Of a stretch of 64,000 nt of DNA, positions 9,142 through 55,124 are shown in pieces. The position numbers and the translations under genes were made by a program. The stretch is from an uncultured Gemmatimonadota bacterium (GTDB lineage: Bacteria > JAAXHH01): NCBI GenBank assembly GCA_951812955.1, contig OX638340.1, positions 1,280,001 through 1,344,000 on the forward strand, in the 5' to 3' direction. The notes under the pieces were generated by a model. That model did no database searches. It was given only the letters and a program-made list of their open reading frames with translations, and was not told the DNA's origin. Within the stretch, counting starts at the first letter, position 1, and every line of letters begins with the position of its first letter.

Positions 9142-10053
9142 TTGTCCGAGGAAGGACCGGCGCGCGTCATGGACGAACTGAACGACTTCCTTACCCACCT
9201 GATCATCGAACGTGGGCTGTCGCCGAACAGCTACGAGGCGTACCGCCGCGACCTGACTTCCTACAAGGATCACCTCGACCGGCGGGGGATCGCTTCCTTC
9301 TCGGTTGCGACGCGTCAGGACGTCCAGGGATTCATCGCATACCTGCGCCGGCGCGGCCTCGCGCCTTCGAGCATCGCGCGGCACGTATCGGCGGTCCGGA
9401 TTTTCCACCGATTCCTCATCGGTGAAGGGCTGGCCACGGCCGATCCGACCGAACACGTCAGGGTGCCCAAGCAGCCCCGGCGCCTTCCCGTCGTCCTGAA
9501 CCGGGAGGAGATCGGGAAGTTGCTCGAGCAGCCGGACCATACGACGTCGCTGGGACTGCGCGACCGGGCGATCCTCGAATTCATGTATGCTACCGGCCTG
9601 CGCGCGTCCGAGTTGCTGGATTTCAGGAGGCCCGATCTGCTCTTTGAATCGGGATTGGCGCGCATCTTTGGGAAGGGCGGCAAGGAGCGGCTGGTACCCG
9701 TGGGCCGCCAGGCGATCAACCTGATCAGGAACTACCTGCACAAGGTGCGTCCCGCCCTGGCCTCATCGAACAGCGGCGAGGTGCTCTTCCTGAACGCCCG
9801 GGGAGGCCGGCTGTCCCGCATGGGCCTGTGGAAGATCATGGATACCTACGTGGAGCTCGCCGGTTTCGAAAAGAAAGTCAGTCCCCATACCATGCGCCAT
9901 TCCTTCGCCACCCATCTCCTGGAGGGCGGCGCCGATCTCCGCGCCGTCCAGGAAATGCTGGGTCACGTGGACATCGCCACGACGCAGATCTACACCCACG
10001 TGGACCGCAAATACCTCAAGGATGTGTACGCCCGGTACCATCCCCGGGGTTGA
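9142..10053 (+). CDS. Tyrosine site-specific recombinase, XerC/XerD family.
   Basis: N-terminal SAM-like domain plus catalytic R..HxxR..Y (HTMRHSFATHLLEGGADLRAVQEMLGH..TQIYTHV). Confidence 0.8.
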   Translation: MSEEGPARVMDELNDFLTHLIIERGLSPNSYEAYRRDLTSYKDHLDRRGIASFSVATRQDVQGFIAYLRRRGLAPSSIARHVSAVRIFHRFLIGEGLATADPTEHVRVPKQPRRLPVVLNREEIGKLLEQPDHTTSLGLRDRAILEFMYATGLRASELLDFRRPDLLFESGLARIFGKGGKERLVPVGRQAINLIRNYLHKVRPALASSNSGEVLFLNARGGRLSRMGLWKIMDTYVELAGFEKKVSPHTMRHSFATHLLEGGADLRAVQEMLGHVDIATTQIYTHVDRKYLKDVYARYHPRG

Positions 10054-33240: not shown

Positions 33241-33381
33241 TACCGGAAGGTCCGTGCACGACGTATCTTGCGAGTGGGCGGGCGCGCTAATAACAGCGGT
33301 TCGAGGACTGCAGAAATGGAGGATGCATCGCGTATGTCCGCATCGGAGAGCAAGTCGGCATCGGCCCCACGTCCCATCCGC

Positions 33382-34434
33382 ATGGAACCGGATCGCGTGA
33401 CGCGGATCATGGACCTCGTCTTCACGCGTCTGGGCCTGGAATGCGACGAAAGAAAGGTGGTCGTCGAGCGGCTCATGGAGGCCTCCCTTTCCGGGTACCA
33501 CTCCCACGGCGTGATGCGGATAACCATGTATACGGAAGGCATTCGCGTCGGCAATATGATCCCGGGCGCGAAGCTGGACGTCCTGGGTGAAACGGTCTCC
33601 ACGCTGCACCTGGACGCCAACAAGGGCATGGGGCCCTGGACGGCCACCGAGGCCATGAAGCGCGCGGTGGGCAAGGCCGAGGCAACGGGTATCGGTTGCG
33701 TGAGCGTCGTGAACGCCAATGATGTCGCGCGGCTGGGCGGATACGTGGAACAGCCGGCAAAAGACGGTTACATCGCCCTGCTGATGGCCAACGACGCCGG
33801 CGGCAATCCCTGCGTGGCGCCATGGGGCGCGACCTCACCCCTGATGAGCACAAACCCTATGGCCGTCGGTATTCCCCGGAAAGGCGGCGACCCGATCCTC
33901 ATCGATATCTCCACGGGGGTTTCTTCCGAGGGACGGGTCAAGATGCTGCGCAACCGGGGCCAGGCGGTACCCGACGGCTGGCTGATTGACGGAGATGGAC
34001 GGACCACGACGGATGCCGAAACCTACTTTTCAACGCCCAGGCAGGCAGCACTCCTGCCACTGGGCAGCCTGATCGCGGGACACAAGGGGTTCGCGCTGAG
34101 CATACTGGTCGACGTGCTGACTGGTGGCCTGAGCGGCGCGGGCTGCAGCGGCCGGTCGCCGGACGACCTCGACGAGAATGCCCTGTTCATCCTCGTCATC
34201 GACCCCGACAAGTTTGGTTCCAGGTCCGCCTTATCCGCAGAAGTGGACCGGCTCGCTGAGAGCATCAAGGGCGCACGCAAGGCACCCGGAGTCGACGAGA
34301 TCCGTGTGCCCGGCGATGGAGCCCGCAGCGAACGGGAGCGGCAACTGAAACAGGGTATTGAAATCGATCCGCCTGTCTGGTCCTCCATACAGGAAATCAT
34401 GGACGAATTGGGGATTGATCAGGACGGCCTGTAA
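33382..34434 (+). CDS. Ldh_2 family (malate/L-lactate dehydrogenase-like) NAD(P)H-dependent oxidoreductase.
   Basis: Family-typical segments (GYHSHGVMRI, ATSPLMSTNPMAVGIP, HKGFALSILVDVLTGGLSG). Start chosen at MEPDRVTRIM (33382). Confidence 0.7.
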   Translation: MEPDRVTRIMDLVFTRLGLECDERKVVVERLMEASLSGYHSHGVMRITMYTEGIRVGNMIPGAKLDVLGETVSTLHLDANKGMGPWTATEAMKRAVGKAEATGIGCVSVVNANDVARLGGYVEQPAKDGYIALLMANDAGGNPCVAPWGATSPLMSTNPMAVGIPRKGGDPILIDISTGVSSEGRVKMLRNRGQAVPDGWLIDGDGRTTTDAETYFSTPRQAALLPLGSLIAGHKGFALSILVDVLTGGLSGAGCSGRSPDDLDENALFILVIDPDKFGSRSALSAEVDRLAESIKGARKAPGVDEIRVPGDGARSERERQLKQGIEIDPPVWSSIQEIMDELGIDQDGL

Positions 34435-34464: not shown

Positions 34465-36402
34465 TCAATAACCGCTGTTCCCTAACCTGACACCGATGTA
34501 GCCGGTCATGCCCACGGTTCCGTATCCCAGGATTTCCTCGTACTCCGCATTGAGCAGATTGTCGATCCTTCCGAATAACTGGATGTTCGGTGTGACCTTC
34601 CAATTGGCGGCCACATTCACGATCCCGTAGCCATCCAGCGTTACCGGTGTGGCGGGCCAGGTCGAGAAGTCGTTGTCCCTTCGCTCCCCCGAAAAACGGA
34701 AACTCAGGTTCAGATCTACGCCCTGCCGTACTCGCTGATCAAGGACGATCCCGCCGCTGTGCCTCGGCCGTCTCAATAACTGCTCATCCGACTCATGGTC
34801 CTTCGAATCGGTCAAAGTATAGTAGGCACGCAGGGAAGTTCCCGCGATTCCCACATACCGTCCGGTCAACTCCAACCCCTTGCTTGTGGCCTTGAACACG
34901 TTCTTGTAACTGGATGTTTCGCTGTCCCACCCGACCATATTGTCGAAGGTATTGTCGAAATAGGTCACGCCGGCCACCAGCTTCTGATCGGCCAGGTACT
35001 GCTCCAGCCCCGCTTCCCAGCTCTTGCTGGTCCCGGCCTGGAGCGTGGAATCACCGAAGGAAGAATGCAGTTGAAACAGTGACGGCGCCTTGTAACCCGT
35101 ACCGTAGGCGCCTTTGATCCTGATTCCCGACGCTTCGAAGTACGCGTTTGGCGCGATGCTGTAGGTGACTTTAGAACCGTACCGGCTGTGATGATCGGCT
35201 CGCACGCCAAGGGTTGCAAACAGCGTATTGCCATACTGCAGCAACTCCTGCAGATAAGCACCGGTCATCCTTGCGGATCGGCGATCGAACTTGCTCGGGA
35301 ATCGGCCCCTTGATTCTGATTCTCCCTGTTCCGTTTCGGTTTCGGCGCCGAATACGAGCGTATTCCCGCCAGACAGCATCAGCGTGTTCTGCCAGTCTAT
35401 TTTGTGCAACCGCGCGTAGAACGTGGAGTTCGAAGCCGTTTCCTGGTTCTCGTCCACCGGATTGTCGTCTTCCCTGCTGTGATCGACGAGGCTATATCCC
35501 AGGGTCTGCTTCCATCGCTGCGACCACAATTCGAGGGTGGCCGAGGGACGGACAAACAGTTGCCTGGAGGAGTTTACCCGATTGGGATCGTCCCCATCGG
35601 GACCGGCTCCATTATCGATATCGGCCCGGCCATCCGTGAAACGAAACGTGAGATCGACCGAAGCATTCGCGGCGGGCGTCGCCCCGAAGCGTCCACCCAC
35701 CGTGGTGTTTCGATAGCCGTCTTCTTCCTGGTTCCCCAGGGCATTCGCTGAAATACCCCGAGCGTTCAGGAAGGAGCCGTCGATCGCATACTGGTAACTG
35801 TCCGTTCCGCCATTCAATCCCGCCCGGCTTCGAAACGTACCCAGGGCGCCGCCCTCGAAGGATGCCCCGATCTTTGGCTTACCCTCACCGCGCTTCGTAA
35901 TGATGTTCACGACCCCCGCGATGGCGTCCGACCCGTACAGTGTACTCTGGGACCCGTACAGCACCTCGATACGTTCTACCTGGTCGACGGTCAGATGCGC
36001 CGGGCTGTAGCCGCGACCCGGAGACATGGCATCGTTGACCTCGATTCCATCGATCAGAAACAGGGTGTAGGACGATTCGGCACCGCGAAGAAAAACAGAC
36101 GCGTTATTACCCGTGCCGCCAGCCTGTGCCATGCTCAAACCGCCCACGTCGCGCAGCACGCCGGCGACCGTGTTCTGGCTGCTGCGTTCGATATCGTCGG
36201 CGGTGATTACGGCGATCGAGCTCGACACCTGCCGCAAGGGTGTTTCGATTTTCGCAGCGGTTACGACAACGGCATCCAGAATGTATCTGGGTTCCTGGTC
36301 CACCGGGTCCTCCGGGTCCGGTGAATTCTGCGCAAATCCTGGCGCTGCGGACAGCAGGTAAAAACAGAGCACGGCTTTAATCGCATGTGGTATGTGTTTC
36401 AT
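34465..36402 (-). CDS. btuB: TonB-dependent receptor, BtuB-like (vitamin B12/cobalamin outer-membrane transporter).
   Basis: Signal peptide; plug domain with TonB box-like DAVVVTA; barrel ending in aromatic ..GY. GGGAGG SD 6 nt upstream of the ATG at 36402. Preceded by a cobalamin riboswitch. Confidence 0.8.
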   Translation of the reverse strand: MKHIPHAIKAVLCFYLLSAAPGFAQNSPDPEDPVDQEPRYILDAVVVTAAKIETPLRQVSSSIAVITADDIERSSQNTVAGVLRDVGGLSMAQAGGTGNNASVFLRGAESSYTLFLIDGIEVNDAMSPGRGYSPAHLTVDQVERIEVLYGSQSTLYGSDAIAGVVNIITKRGEGKPKIGASFEGGALGTFRSRAGLNGGTDSYQYAIDGSFLNARGISANALGNQEEDGYRNTTVGGRFGATPAANASVDLTFRFTDGRADIDNGAGPDGDDPNRVNSSRQLFVRPSATLELWSQRWKQTLGYSLVDHSREDDNPVDENQETASNSTFYARLHKIDWQNTLMLSGGNTLVFGAETETEQGESESRGRFPSKFDRRSARMTGAYLQELLQYGNTLFATLGVRADHHSRYGSKVTYSIAPNAYFEASGIRIKGAYGTGYKAPSLFQLHSSFGDSTLQAGTSKSWEAGLEQYLADQKLVAGVTYFDNTFDNMVGWDSETSSYKNVFKATSKGLELTGRYVGIAGTSLRAYYTLTDSKDHESDEQLLRRPRHSGGIVLDQRVRQGVDLNLSFRFSGERRDNDFSTWPATPVTLDGYGIVNVAANWKVTPNIQLFGRIDNLLNAEYEEILGYGTVGMTGYIGVRLGNSGY

Positions 36403-36491
36403 CTTGCCTCCCGATATGGTAGATGGTTCGGTGCCTGCAAATTGACGACGCGCATTGGGGTCCATCAGGTCGTTGATTCAGATCGATCTCC

Positions 36492-36535
36492 TTTAAATAA
36501 AAAATCCCCGTACCTGAACGTTGTCAGATACGGGG
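36492..36535 (-). terminator. Intrinsic terminator hairpin (CCCCGUA...UACGGGG followed by AUUUUUUAUUU) in the riboswitch expression platform, upstream of btuB.
   Basis: Read directly on the minus strand: GC-rich 7-bp stem with extended pairing, followed by a U7-rich tract. Confidence 0.6.
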
Positions 36536-36679
36536 ATGCCGTTTGTCATCCTCGGAATACGGCCACTTGCAGATTACGCCCCAATGAATATACTACGGGA
36601 CAAAAACGCCTGGCGGCCGTACTTACGATTATCCATGTACACCGGACGACTTCAGTCCACGGAAGTCCCGATGAAAACT

Positions 36680-36850
36680 ATGGGCAGGTCGGTCTTCTGG
36701 CTTCCGGATCGATCTACTCGCCGCGCCTTCCCATTCCCGGAGGAACAGTGGCTCGAGCACTATGGCTCTTGATGCGGTTTTCGTCCCCGGTCACAGCGAC
36801 GGGTCCGCGACGGATTCGCACCGTCTTCCCAACTTCTCACCTGCTCCTGT
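36680..36850 (-). promoter_or_regulatory. Cobalamin (adenosylcobalamin) riboswitch aptamer.
   Basis: Minus-strand sequence GGUGAGAAGUUGGGAAGACGGUGCGAAUCCGUCGCGGACCCGUCGCUGUGACCGGGG...GAGCCACUGUUCCUCCGGGAAUGGGAAGG...GAUCCGGAAGCCAGAAGACCGACCUGCC matches the conserved Cbl riboswitch core (GGUG..AGGGAA..CGGUGnnAAUCC..GCnGnCCCGC.ACUGU; B12 box GCCACUG..GGGAAGG; ..GCCAG.AGACC.GCC). Confidence 0.85.
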
Positions 36851-36851
36851 C

Positions 36852-36880
36852 AAGATAGTACCGTTTCGGGGTGAGATCAA
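36852..36880 (-). promoter_or_regulatory. Candidate promoter for the riboswitch/btuB transcript (TTGATC-17-TATCTT).
   Basis: Weak -35/-10 match with correct spacing; TSS would fall at the aptamer 5' end. Confidence 0.25.
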
Positions 36881-37006
36881 TCGAAAACTGCGGATTACCT
36901 TAAGGTCGCAGCAAAACTGCTACGTGAGCTACTGGGAAGTGTAATCCTTGATGCGAGGGAGGATTGGTCCGGAGGCGTTCTGGAATCCGCATACAAGCGT
37001 CAATAA

Positions 37007-37762
37007 TTATGACACTTCGATAAGTATCCTGCAATGATCGCTGGGACCCCATTCTTCCGGCTTGTTCAGTGCCGTTGTTCTGATGGAATTCTTCATGCTT
37101 CGTGAAGCAAACACGTAATCCAGCTGCCTGGTGGCCGTCGCAGGTTTTTGACTGGTATGATAGTATGTGGGACCCTGGGGGCCTATCATGGGCAGACCAA
37201 TTGATGACATCCTGTCGAATACTGCTTTCTTGCGGGTCTTCCAGTATTCGTTGCTTCCATCGCCATCCATCACAGTTGTATCTCCAGCCGCGATCATCCT
37301 GAAACTGTTCTTCCTGCCTATAAGCAGCGAGATGTCCGATATGATGCGATGGATCGACGTGTCTACTAGATCACGGCTTTTAAGGCCCGATGATGGATGA
37401 TATGCCTCATACTGGGGACAGAATGACACTACATGAATCGGCCAGTCCCGGAATTTGCCTTCAAGAGGGGTCACAACGGCCGCGGACAGGCATCCCGGAT
37501 GACTGGACTGTATATCATCCAGATAACACACCTTAACCCTGTCGGATGTTTTTACTATAGCACATCTGGATCGTGCTTTGCCCCGACTATCTGGTCTAAG
37601 TGGGTCCTTTTTGTAGTATGGCGCAGGATCCACTTCAATTCTGCCAGCCACATCCTTTGGCGGTTTATAGCCTTCCTGGAGCAGGACAATATCTACGTCC
37701 AGATCAGGCAAGGATCTCCATGCCGCCCTGCGATGCCCGATATTCCAGCAGACCAGTTTCAT
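37007..37762 (-). CDS. Endonuclease/exonuclease/phosphatase (EEP) family protein, within a low-GC islet.
   Basis: N-terminal MKLVCWNIG..DIVLLQE and C-terminal GPSDHCRILIEV motifs typical of EEP (ExoIII/DNase I/sphingomyelinase) fold. Local GC ~47% versus ~65% flanking. Confidence 0.65.
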   Translation of the reverse strand: MKLVCWNIGHRRAAWRSLPDLDVDIVLLQEGYKPPKDVAGRIEVDPAPYYKKDPLRPDSRGKARSRCAIVKTSDRVKVCYLDDIQSSHPGCLSAAVVTPLEGKFRDWPIHVVSFCPQYEAYHPSSGLKSRDLVDTSIHRIISDISLLIGRKNSFRMIAAGDTTVMDGDGSNEYWKTRKKAVFDRMSSIGLPMIGPQGPTYYHTSQKPATATRQLDYVFASRSMKNSIRTTALNKPEEWGPSDHCRILIEVS

Positions 37763-37798
37763 CCAGATCTCCAAACGGTCCATCTGAAGATCGCAGCA

Positions 37799-38170
37799 CT
37801 ATGGCTTGTCGTCAAAGTACGGAGAGCAGTTTTGTTTCCAGGCCAGCCAGGTCCGACTGCCGTCGGAAGCCACAATGACGTGATCTTTGAACTTTTCCGG
37901 TATATTGGTGATTTTGCCTTGAGGGCCTTCGCCCGTTACGAACAGATCGTCCAGCGTCGTCCTTTCATGAAACAACCTGCTCTTTCCTTCGTGCACGGCG
38001 TCCTTTATTTCTGAAATCACCTGTCTGAATTCTTCTTCTATATCATCGGTTATTGTTTCCCTTTCCGACATTGTCCTTGTCTCCTTGTAGGCTTCCCACA
38101 ACCGCTTGACATGTTTGGCATACCTAAAATACTTCGCAAGCTCCAGAAGCAGTTCGAGGTATTCGGTCAT
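37799..38170 (-). CDS. Hypothetical protein (123 aa) immediately upstream of the EEP gene and in the same reading frame, separated by one TAG.
   Basis: ORF with ATG at 38170 (TTG at 38179 also possible). No recognisable domain. Same low-GC composition as the EEP gene. Confidence 0.4.
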   Translation of the reverse strand: MTEYLELLLELAKYFRYAKHVKRLWEAYKETRTMSERETITDDIEEEFRQVISEIKDAVHEGKSRLFHERTTLDDLFVTGEGPQGKITNIPEKFKDHVIVASDGSRTWLAWKQNCSPYFDDKP

Positions 38171-38285
38171 GACCTGCAATGCCTGATTTAAAGGATACCC
38201 AATGCCGCCCTGAATTCAAAGGTATTCCCGATAAACATCCAAACAGCACCCTTGTACCTGGCATAGCCTCAGTTTTCTACCACAA

Positions 38286-40920: not shown

Positions 40921-40994
40921 GCCCCAGTAGCTCAGTTGGACAGAGCATCGGACTTCTAATCCGAGGGTCGCAGGTTCGAATCCTGCCTGGGGTA
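40921..40994 (+). tRNA. tRNA-Arg (anticodon TCT).
   Basis: Manually folded cloverleaf: acceptor GCCCCAG/CTGGGGT, D-arm GCTC-AGTTGGACA-GAGC, anticodon stem TCGGA/TCCGA with loop CTTCTAA, T-arm GCAGG-TTCGAAT-CCTGC, discriminator A. G1:U72 wobble noted. Confidence 0.8.
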
Positions 40995-41054
40995 TGGGAA
41001 CCGGGCTTTCAGCGTAGTCCGCGCAGTGGTTGCGCCGGTTCCCGGTTCCCCCGT

Positions 41055-41128
41055 GCGTCCGTAGCTCAGCTGGATAGAGCAACTGACTTCGGATCAGTAG
41101 GTCGGGGGTTCGAATCCCTCCGGGCGTA
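41055..41128 (+). tRNA. tRNA-Arg (anticodon TCG).
   Basis: Cloverleaf: acceptor GCGTCCG/CGGGCGT, D-arm GCTC-AGCTGGATA-GAGC, anticodon stem ACTGA/TCAGT with loop CTTCGGA, T-arm GGGGG-TTCGAAT-CCCTC. G1:U72 wobble again. Confidence 0.75.
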
Positions 41129-41194
41129 TACATTTCATCGACATCCCCATCTGTTCATCGTTTCCAAGGCATCGATTGCCGGGAAGGAACGACC

Positions 41195-53983: not shown

Positions 53984-54025
53984 CTAAGGCGCGTTTCTTG
54001 AGGTCTCAGGTGCGTTTCTTGAGAT
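53984..54025. repeat. Two tandem 21-bp units (cYMaggYgcgtttcttgagRt); the second encodes the last 6 codons and stop of the ankyrin gene.
   Basis: Read directly. Confidence 0.6.
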
Positions 54026-55124
54026 AAGCAGCGCCGAGCCGGGCGATTTCTAAGGCGGTTTTTCCGCTTTTGTTCAGCACGGTCCCGTCCGCGCCCTCGG
54101 CGAGCAGGACCTCCGCGGCTTTGGCATGCCCTTCGTACGTGGCCCTGTGTAGGGGTGTGCGGCCCTTTCGATCCTGGGCATCCAGGTCCGCTCCGGCCTG
54201 TGTGAGTAGTTTCACGGAATCCGACCGGCCACTTTCCGCCGCCAGGTGCAAGGGCGTTCGGTGCGCCTTGTTCCGGGCGTCCACCTCGGCGCCATGGTCC
54301 AGCAGCAGCTTAGCGCACTCAACTGAACCTGCCCGGCACGCCCAGTGCAGCGGGGTCATCCCGTAAACGCCAATTTCCCTGGCCATCGCCGGATTTGTGG
54401 ACAAAAGTTCCAGGACCCGGGTTACGTCATTCAGTCCCGCCGCCGCATAGGCGTCGTATACCGCGCCGTCCTCGATCAACAAGCGGGCGACTTCCCGCTT
54501 ACCTTCGTTCCGGCGTGCGTCGTCTCCACCCCACCTGCCAGGCGCCACAGCCTCGTGCAGGGCCGTCTCACCTCGCTCCCCGTTGCCCGTGATAGGCAGT
54601 TCGTGATGCACGGAGGCACCATTGTCGATCAGGAGTCCGGCGACTTCAGGAAACCCGCCCCAGGCGGCCCAGTACATGAGGGAAAGGTTCGCGGGCCAGC
54701 CCGTGTGGGGCTTTGCGATGGACACCGGGGTGGCGTCCGCCGCACCCGCGGCGAAAACGGCTTCAAGGGTGTCCACTGAACCCGCCCAGGCCGCTTCGTG
54801 CAGGACGTTGTAGGAGGTCGTGTCGATGCTTAAAACAATTCCGCGATCGAGGAGAAACGATACCGCCTCTCCACAGCCGCGCATGCCAACGGCTACGGTA
54901 AGCAGGCTGGAACCGATGCGATCGAGAACGGCCGGATGTTTCGCGTGGATTTCCGCCATCATCGGCAGGTCCGGCTGTCCATCCCAACGATCCGATGCCT
55001 GACCGATAGCCGCTTCGATGAAGCGCCCTTCCGCTTGCGTGACGTCCGGCAACTGTTCTTCACGAAGAAACCAGTTTTGTCGGAACAACCGGATTGCGGG
55101 ACTGTCGAGCACCGCGCCTCCCAT
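54006..55124 (-). CDS. Ankyrin-repeat protein (at least 6 ANK repeats).
   Basis: Repeated TPLH..A...G.......LL..GA..(D/N) modules (TPLHWACRAGSVECAKLLLDHGAEVDARNKAHRTPLHLAAESGRSDSVKLLTQAGADLDAQDRKGRTPLHRA). Confidence 0.8.
   Translation of the reverse strand: MGGAVLDSPAIRLFRQNWFLREEQLPDVTQAEGRFIEAAIGQASDRWDGQPDLPMMAEIHAKHPAVLDRIGSSLLTVAVGMRGCGEAVSFLLDRGIVLSIDTTSYNVLHEAAWAGSVDTLEAVFAAGAADATPVSIAKPHTGWPANLSLMYWAAWGGFPEVAGLLIDNGASVHHELPITGNGERGETALHEAVAPGRWGGDDARRNEGKREVARLLIEDGAVYDAYAAAGLNDVTRVLELLSTNPAMAREIGVYGMTPLHWACRAGSVECAKLLLDHGAEVDARNKAHRTPLHLAAESGRSDSVKLLTQAGADLDAQDRKGRTPLHRATYEGHAKAAEVLLAEGADGTVLNKSGKTALEIARLGAAYLKKRT

Follow-up and report, generated by a model that had tools for sequence, protein, structure and literature searches.

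A cobalamin riboswitch followed by a predicted intrinsic terminator in the leader of a BtuB-like receptor gene from an uncultured Gemmatimonadota bacterium

The window analyzed here is a 64,000-nt stretch of DNA from an uncultured Gemmatimonadota bacterium (contig OX638340.1 of assembly GCA_951812955.1, positions 1,280,001 to 1,344,000 of the forward strand), and coordinates are counted from its first letter. Its minus strand carries a gene for a BtuB-like TonB-dependent receptor, preceded by a leader of about 445 nt in which a reading made from the sequence alone had proposed a cobalamin riboswitch with a terminator-type expression platform. We analyzed this leader and its gene together with related loci, which are designated by L numbers. 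The features of the leader and gene are collected in Table 1; positions on the minus strand are given from high to low where the order of the RNA matters.

Table 1. Features of the receptor gene and its leader, in the order of transcription
Feature	Position	Strand	Details
Promoter-like site	36852..36880	-	-35 TTGATC 36880-36875; 17-nt spacer; -10 TATCTT 36857-36852
Cobalamin riboswitch aptamer (RF00174)	36670..36859	-	cmscan, 94.8 bits, full model
P13 hairpin	36640..36673	-	covarying stem, conserved loop
Variable spacer hairpin (H2)	36558..36622	-	-28.4 kcal/mol, z -4.6
Small hairpin	36531..36554	-	CG-A-GGAUG-ACAAACGG-CAUCC-C-CG; -7.8 kcal/mol; 94% of cells paired
Intrinsic terminator (predicted)	36492..36537	-	14-bp stem 36537-36524 with 36517-36504; loop CAACGU; U-run UUUUUUAUUU
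Shine-Dalgarno-like GGAG and start-like CUG	36479..36491	-	GGAG 36491-36488; CUG 36481-36479; directly after terminator, 6-nt spacing
Receptor Shine-Dalgarno GGGAGG	36407..36412	-	sequence
BtuB-like TonB-dependent receptor	34465..36402	-	645 aa; signal peptide MKHIPHAIKAVLCFYLLSAAPGFAQ; domain, family and structure matches

The ATG at 36402 and the GGGAGG Shine-Dalgarno (SD) sequence that had been read in front of the receptor gene are both present, and an alternative in-frame ATG lies at 36465. The protein carries a Plug domain (PF07715) and a beta-barrel domain (PF00593). Its best NCBIfam match was TIGR01779 (TonB-B12, 329.1 bits), with NF007926 at 274.4 bits and the next family, CirA, at 150 bits. 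The best solved structures were all E. coli BtuB, matched over the full length (E 3e-56), and the earlier description of the product as a BtuB-like TonB-dependent receptor was borne out. Its putative specificity for B12 is supported by best-match homology together with the riboswitch. The next gene (33268-34434, plus strand, Ldh_2 family) is convergent to the receptor gene, which is therefore considered monocistronic.

The RF00174 model matched on the minus strand from 36859 to 36670 over all of its positions (1-189 of 189), with a score of 94.8 bits against a gathering score of 31.5 and an E value of 2.5e-22 (cmscan). This was the sole riboswitch match in an Rfam scan of the whole window, and a permissive scan of 36350-37050 (to E<=1) returned no further Rfam family. 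The core motifs quoted in the sequence-only reading are all on the minus strand. The GGGAA junction, the B12 box GCCACUG (36752-36746) and GCCAG.AGACC align to the RF00174 consensus and are invariant among relatives, and L5 (ACCCG, 36804-36800) was without any variation in all of them. Covariation supports the core helices; compensatory two-sided changes were found in 16 of 34 consensus pairs among 11 aptamers from different lineages. Hairpins of the peripheral extension covary in close relatives too, for example GAGCCAUAGUGCUC versus GAGCCUUACGGGCUC. The element is thus confirmed by sequence and covariation as a cobalamin riboswitch of the class-I-type model with a P6 extension, and binding of the ligand is predicted.

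The opposite strand of the leader is open in places, and the open reading frames (ORFs) there had been called spurious, a view with which our results agree. The plus-strand ORFs 36385-36858 and 36521-36772 exist and had no Pfam match. We rejected the 157-aa antisense ORF as a gene on that ground and because relatives keep anything from 89 to 158 aa of it open; the frame is preserved mainly by the invariance of the aptamer sequence.

Loci of receptor homologues were scanned for the same arrangement. RF00174 lay directly upstream in 17 of the 20 best receptor-homologue loci from species-representative genomes (33-81% identity) and upstream in all 15 further receptor loci scanned, for a total of 32 of 35. 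The close homologues (77-96% identity) are on large metagenome-assembled contigs, and the closest named genome is a Gemmatimonadetes metagenome-assembled genome (MAG). Close relatives are syntenic, with a gene for an HHH_3 protein upstream and Ldh_2, DHDPS and SSF genes convergent downstream. At the locus of a 49%-identical homologue (L123, a TARA contig), a CbiA-family gene follows the receptor gene. The riboswitches at these loci and the CbiA-family gene in L123 lend indirect support to B12 as the putative substrate of transport. A metagenome scan with the 3' end of the aptamer returned 3 contigs only. Separately, L017 was observed to carry two tandem RF00174 aptamers (2466-2977) directly before its receptor gene.

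The hairpin at 36673-36640 has an upper stem, GACUUC/GAAGUC (36667-36662 with 36653-36648), an 8-nt loop, CGUGGACU (36661-36654), and a predicted lower stem, CAUCGG/CCGGUG; the folding energy of the extended hairpin was -18.7 kcal/mol. In the alignment 93% of cells were paired, with two-sided changes at 3 of 6 pairs, and the upper stem reads GACUCC/GGAGUC, GACUUU/GAAGUC or UCCCC/GGGGA in other lineages. The loop keeps CG(U/A)GG in all lineages, including a Syntrophaceae MAG (L002), and CG-U-GG fits the CCCG of L5 with four G-C pairs and the third base, U or A, bulged. From these pairings we identified the hairpin as P13, with a loop (L13) that by prediction can kiss L5.

A pattern scan found a sole terminator-like site on the minus strand, at 36537-36504, with 14 pairs (7 of them G-C) followed by TTTTTTATTT. 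The hairpin with its U-run (36537-36499) had a folding energy of -23.7 kcal/mol (z -7.7), and none of 200 shuffled sequences was as stable. The terminator alignment comprised 12 leaders from seven lineages. In it 99.4% of the cells of the 14-bp stem were paired, compared to 23-53% when the partner columns were slid. Pair 28-47 appeared as five pair types (U-G, U-A, A-U, C-G and G-C) and a second stem position as U-G, C-G or U-A, and a U-run follows the stem in every aligned leader. The strong intrinsic terminator claimed earlier is therefore well supported, and its claimed distance of about 130 nt to the SD and ATG holds when counted from the 5' base of the stem; from the end of the U-run (36499) the distances are 86 nt to the SD and 96 nt to the ATG.

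The terminator follows the aptamer in each lineage with such a leader, that is, in the clade of the window and in L093, L094, L096, L098, L123 and L002. Its distance to the start of the gene is 13 nt in L089, 14 nt in L002, 24 nt in L096, 37 nt in L098, about 92-108 nt in most of the window clade, and 221-228 nt in L084 and L093. Since this distance varies from 13 to 228 nt, the terminator belongs to the riboswitch and not to the gene. Nor can it be the upstream gene's own, since that gene is absent from L081, which is 96% identical. The conserved, covarying hairpin is, as judged from these comparisons, a real intrinsic terminator, and termination itself is predicted.

Aptamer and terminator have hardly changed among relatives with receptors at 77-96% identity, which also makes it scarcely credible that the aptamer is a decaying, non-functional relic. 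Decayed copies do exist (L090 and L091), in which the terminator is gone along with the 5' portion of the receptor gene, whereas the window retains an intact aptamer, P13, terminator, SD and ORF. The two decayed copies (L090:4742-5297 and L091:1904-2400) keep an intact leader up to GGATGACAAACGGC and are followed by receptor fragments only; their L13 is GGUGGACU.

The small hairpin and the terminator together make up a 59-nt module. A covariance model of it, built mostly from the window clade, gave 85.9 bits for the window and 69.7 for L002. Among 81 sources searched, it matched only the window, L002 and the truncated copies in L090 and L091; it was not found in the other related loci searched. 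The module is nearly base-for-base common to the window and a riboswitch in the Syntrophaceae MAG, where it stands before a different gene. L002 (61-2305) has one riboswitch before a 296-aa ORF for what is possibly, as judged by eye, a TonB-like protein, and a second riboswitch, with a ribosome-binding-site (RBS) type of platform, before the receptor gene.

Upstream of the aptamer, a promoter-like site scored below the threshold of a consensus scan. Both of its hexamers are conserved in relatives (TTGAYC; TATCTT, TATATT, TATGTT or TACAAT), and the sequence of the 17-nt spacer between them varies. These hexamers would place the start of transcription near 36846. Taken together, these data make it likely that the leader of about 445 nt is a cobalamin riboswitch that acts as an OFF switch on a monocistronic BtuB-like gene through premature termination. 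Binding of a corrinoid would let the L5-L13 kissing loop fix the P13 region; the 14-bp terminator would then form, and RNA polymerase would stop at about 36499, before the receptor gene. In the ligand-free state, the small hairpin at 36554-36531 would hold the eight nucleotides at the base of the terminator's 5' arm; the stem could then not extend to the U-run, and read-through would result. We infer the OFF termination step on good grounds; for the relay from ligand to terminator there are candidate pairings.

Two hairpins lie between P13 and the terminator. The first, H2, differs in sequence and length among relatives (about 14 to 150 nt), with a hairpin retained. The second, the small hairpin, is invariant in sequence, and the nucleotides of its 3' arm also form the base of the 5' arm of the terminator. 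It appeared in the minimum-free-energy structure of most relatives that were folded without the 3' arm of the terminator. No lineage shows any change in the 7 bp at the base of the terminator (AUCCCCG/CGGGGAU) or in the upstream GGAUG, and the distal stem varies freely. Such a pattern would be expected if the basal 5' strand had two alternative partners. A terminator stem unable to reach its U-run should abolish intrinsic termination, and the small hairpin is the best antiterminator candidate because its formation keeps the stem from the U-run. It could, on this sequence pattern, be the antiterminator. The sequence-only reading had suggested looking for mutually exclusive terminator and antiterminator pairing; a conserved hairpin does overlap the base of the terminator, but no link to P13 or to the ligand state emerged from folding.

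Other candidates for the coupling were considered. CCGGGGA of P6, the best RNAduplex partner of the terminator's 5' arm, was rejected as a general antiterminator; it is lost in L094, where the P6 strand reads CCGGAAAC. A contact of L13 (CCGU) with the loop of the small hairpin (ACGG) shows one compensatory change, in the L094 lineage (UCGU/ACGA), and is unlikely in view of L098 and L123, which change U to A uncompensated. Matches to the small-hairpin motif GGRTGRNAWACGRCATCCCCG in 24 viral contigs (L099-L122) were dismissed as chance, being in coding-like sequence with no riboswitch or terminator; 23 of the 24 are at the same spot in near-identical coding-like sequence (...KAAGMENDIPAAS...) of one contig family, and the 24th is also coding-like. 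In the window, the 3' flank of P13 (GUCGUCC) and the linker before P13 (GUUUUCAUC) are each able to pair with GGAUGAC/GAUGACAAAC, and the relay from P13 to the small hairpin might run through either of these pairings.

Several results weigh against the proposed OFF switch or parts of it. When P13 was forced or its 5' arm blocked, the downstream structure of the 12 relatives folded was the same, with no thermodynamic sign of a ligand-dependent switch. The small hairpin is weak (-7.8 kcal/mol compared to -23.7 kcal/mol for the terminator) and, being invariant in sequence, shows no covariation. The relay pairings shrink or vanish in other lineages, and none is kept in all. Likewise, L5 is invariant, so covariation of the kissing loop cannot arise. 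The receptor falls below the equivalog cut-offs of NCBIfam (329.1 versus 599.7 bits for TIGR01779 and 274.4 versus 836 bits for NF007926), for which reason it is called BtuB-like rather than BtuB. Finally, the simplest four-strand relay (P13, the P13 flank with GGAUGAC, the small hairpin and the terminator) has the logic of an ON switch, which is implausible for a B12 importer.

An ON switch would work through a ligand-stabilized P13 that frees GGAUGAC, so that the small hairpin forms and termination is prevented. The strict four-strand relay and the 7-bp complementarity of GUCGUCC to GGAUGAC in the window would suit it, and an activating corrinoid riboswitch exists (PMC10327014). The pairing is reduced to 4-5 bp with wobbles in other lineages, however, and no equivalent was seen in L002 or L123. 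In L002, moreover, the 3' strand of P13 (GGGGAUG) and the terminator arm (CAUCCCC) are perfect complements, and this is OFF logic; in the window clade the P13 3' strand lacks complementarity to the terminator arm. In E. coli btuB and the other cases studied, B12 represses uptake genes of the btuB type, and an ON switch conflicts with that repression. We regard an ON switch as very unlikely.

Returning to the OFF switch, its parts might form a platform that has not been described, consisting of P13, a variable hairpin, an invariant 24-nt hairpin (GGAUG[AMAAACGG]CAUCC) over the base of the terminator, and the terminator, with the ligand state passed through the small hairpin instead of the 3' strand of P13 and a conserved RBS with its start-like codon perhaps adding a translational layer. 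We consider this extended proposal improbable.

The RBS-like site in question directly follows the terminator. Its GGAG is invariant in 11 of 11 aligned leaders and in all close relatives; besides the window, the site was noted in L001, L012, L081-L087, L093 and L094. Of 10 relatives, 9 have a start-like codon (CUG, AUG or UUG) at a fixed distance of 6 nt, and L086 has none. The frames that follow are 1, 2, 3, 13, 26 or 34 codons long and are not conserved; L001 and L012 have a UUG-UAA "start-stop". The GGAG/CUG pair is about 95 nt before the real receptor start, and the region between it and the receptor SD is a poorly conserved spacer. The GGAG may serve to load ribosomes, or it may be left over from an earlier gene start.

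This site invites the explanation that the riboswitch controls mainly translation, as it does in E. coli btuB, or works by way of a short frame after the terminator, as in the B12 leaders of M. tuberculosis, with the hairpin and U-run serving as a constitutive partial attenuator or stabilizing the 3' end of the leader. Conservation of the GGAG and of a start-like codon 6 nt on, when the sequence behind them is not conserved, is in line with that explanation, as is the failure of folding to find a ligand-linked antiterminator; upstream ORFs are documented to modulate genes under B12-riboswitch control (PMC11260477). However, no conserved structure sequesters the receptor SD or ATG, and no consistent sequestering structure was predicted in the 95-nt spacer. 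Neither the length nor the frame of the short ORF is conserved, and in L086 there is no start codon. Moreover, in L089, L096, L098, L123 and L002 the gene starts directly after the terminator, so that the terminator is the sole regulatory element between aptamer and gene in those five loci. Translational control or control by a short upstream frame is thus possible but weaker than the OFF terminator model, and we rate it unlikely.

The spacer itself differs in two relatives. L089 (2980-3012) is without the spacer of about 95 nt, its receptor ATG being fused to the first GGAGG that follows the terminator; this looks like a deletion between two CAGGAG..CA repeats of the kind that flank the spacer in L001 and L012. 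In L084 (2790-3000), tandem CACCGTGAG-like repeats lengthen the spacer to about 220 nt.

Between the gene for the HHH_3 protein and the riboswitch promoter, the window carries at 37007-38179 (minus strand) a 258-aa gene that is weakly endonuclease/exonuclease/phosphatase (EEP)-like and a 126-aa ORF without a family match. The EEP-like gene is absent from L081, and other relatives have an arginase-family gene there on the opposite strand; the intergenic site upstream of the riboswitch promoter is variable. Elsewhere the window carries a gene for a 372-aa ankyrin-repeat protein (54006-55124, minus strand), a XerC/D-like tyrosine recombinase (9142-10053, plus strand) and two adjacent tRNA-Arg genes (TCT and TCG; 40921-41129, plus strand). 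No other B12-related gene was recognized among about 35 larger ORFs of the window checked against Pfam.

These findings support, at the level of sequence, annotation of the receptor as a corrinoid importer, and they suggest that this uncultured bacterium imports B12 from its surroundings and shuts down uptake when supplied. The founding example of the class is the cobalamin riboswitch in front of btuB-type receptor genes, and a B12 riboswitch with a terminator before a B12-type receptor gene is a well-known, ordinary pairing. What is unusual here is only the long, highly conserved platform, with its 59-nt module in common with the Syntrophaceae MAG. The result is otherwise a routine gain in annotation, and the coupling within the platform is of some specialist interest.

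Transcriptional OFF cobalamin riboswitches are described as combining a kissing loop with P13, an antiterminator and a terminator, and a genetic dissection of terminator-type platforms that have an L5-L13 kissing loop has been published (PMC10327014). In E. coli btuB, ribosome binding is controlled by an RBS hairpin and B12 represses (PMC10327014). The window shares with E. coli btuB the RF00174 aptamer family, the type of TonB-dependent B12 receptor and, by prediction, the L5-L13 kissing loop; in place of the RBS hairpin it has a terminator, some 130 nt beyond the aptamer and about 95 nt short of the start codon, and no RBS-sequestering structure was seen. The leaders of M. tuberculosis metE and ppe2 (PMC11260477) resemble that of the window in having a short RBS and reading frame within a B12-riboswitch leader, although in the window the putative frame lies after the terminator and is not conserved in length (1-34 codons). 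Env8HyCbl likewise has a kissing loop with a bulged base in L13 (PMC10327014), as predicted for the window (CG-U-GG with CCCG), but it is class-II and translational, whereas the aptamer of the window fits the class-I-type model with a P6 extension. In the transcriptional OFF switch of Priestia megaterium metE, the functional core of the kissing loop is CCG with CGG (PMC10327014). L002 fits the rule published for metE exactly, in that the 5' arm of its terminator can pair with the 3' strand of P13. The window departs from the rule in that its P13 3' strand is not complementary to the terminator arm, and, unlike metE, it has two hairpins separating P13 from the terminator, one of 65 nt that is variable and a small one that is invariant.

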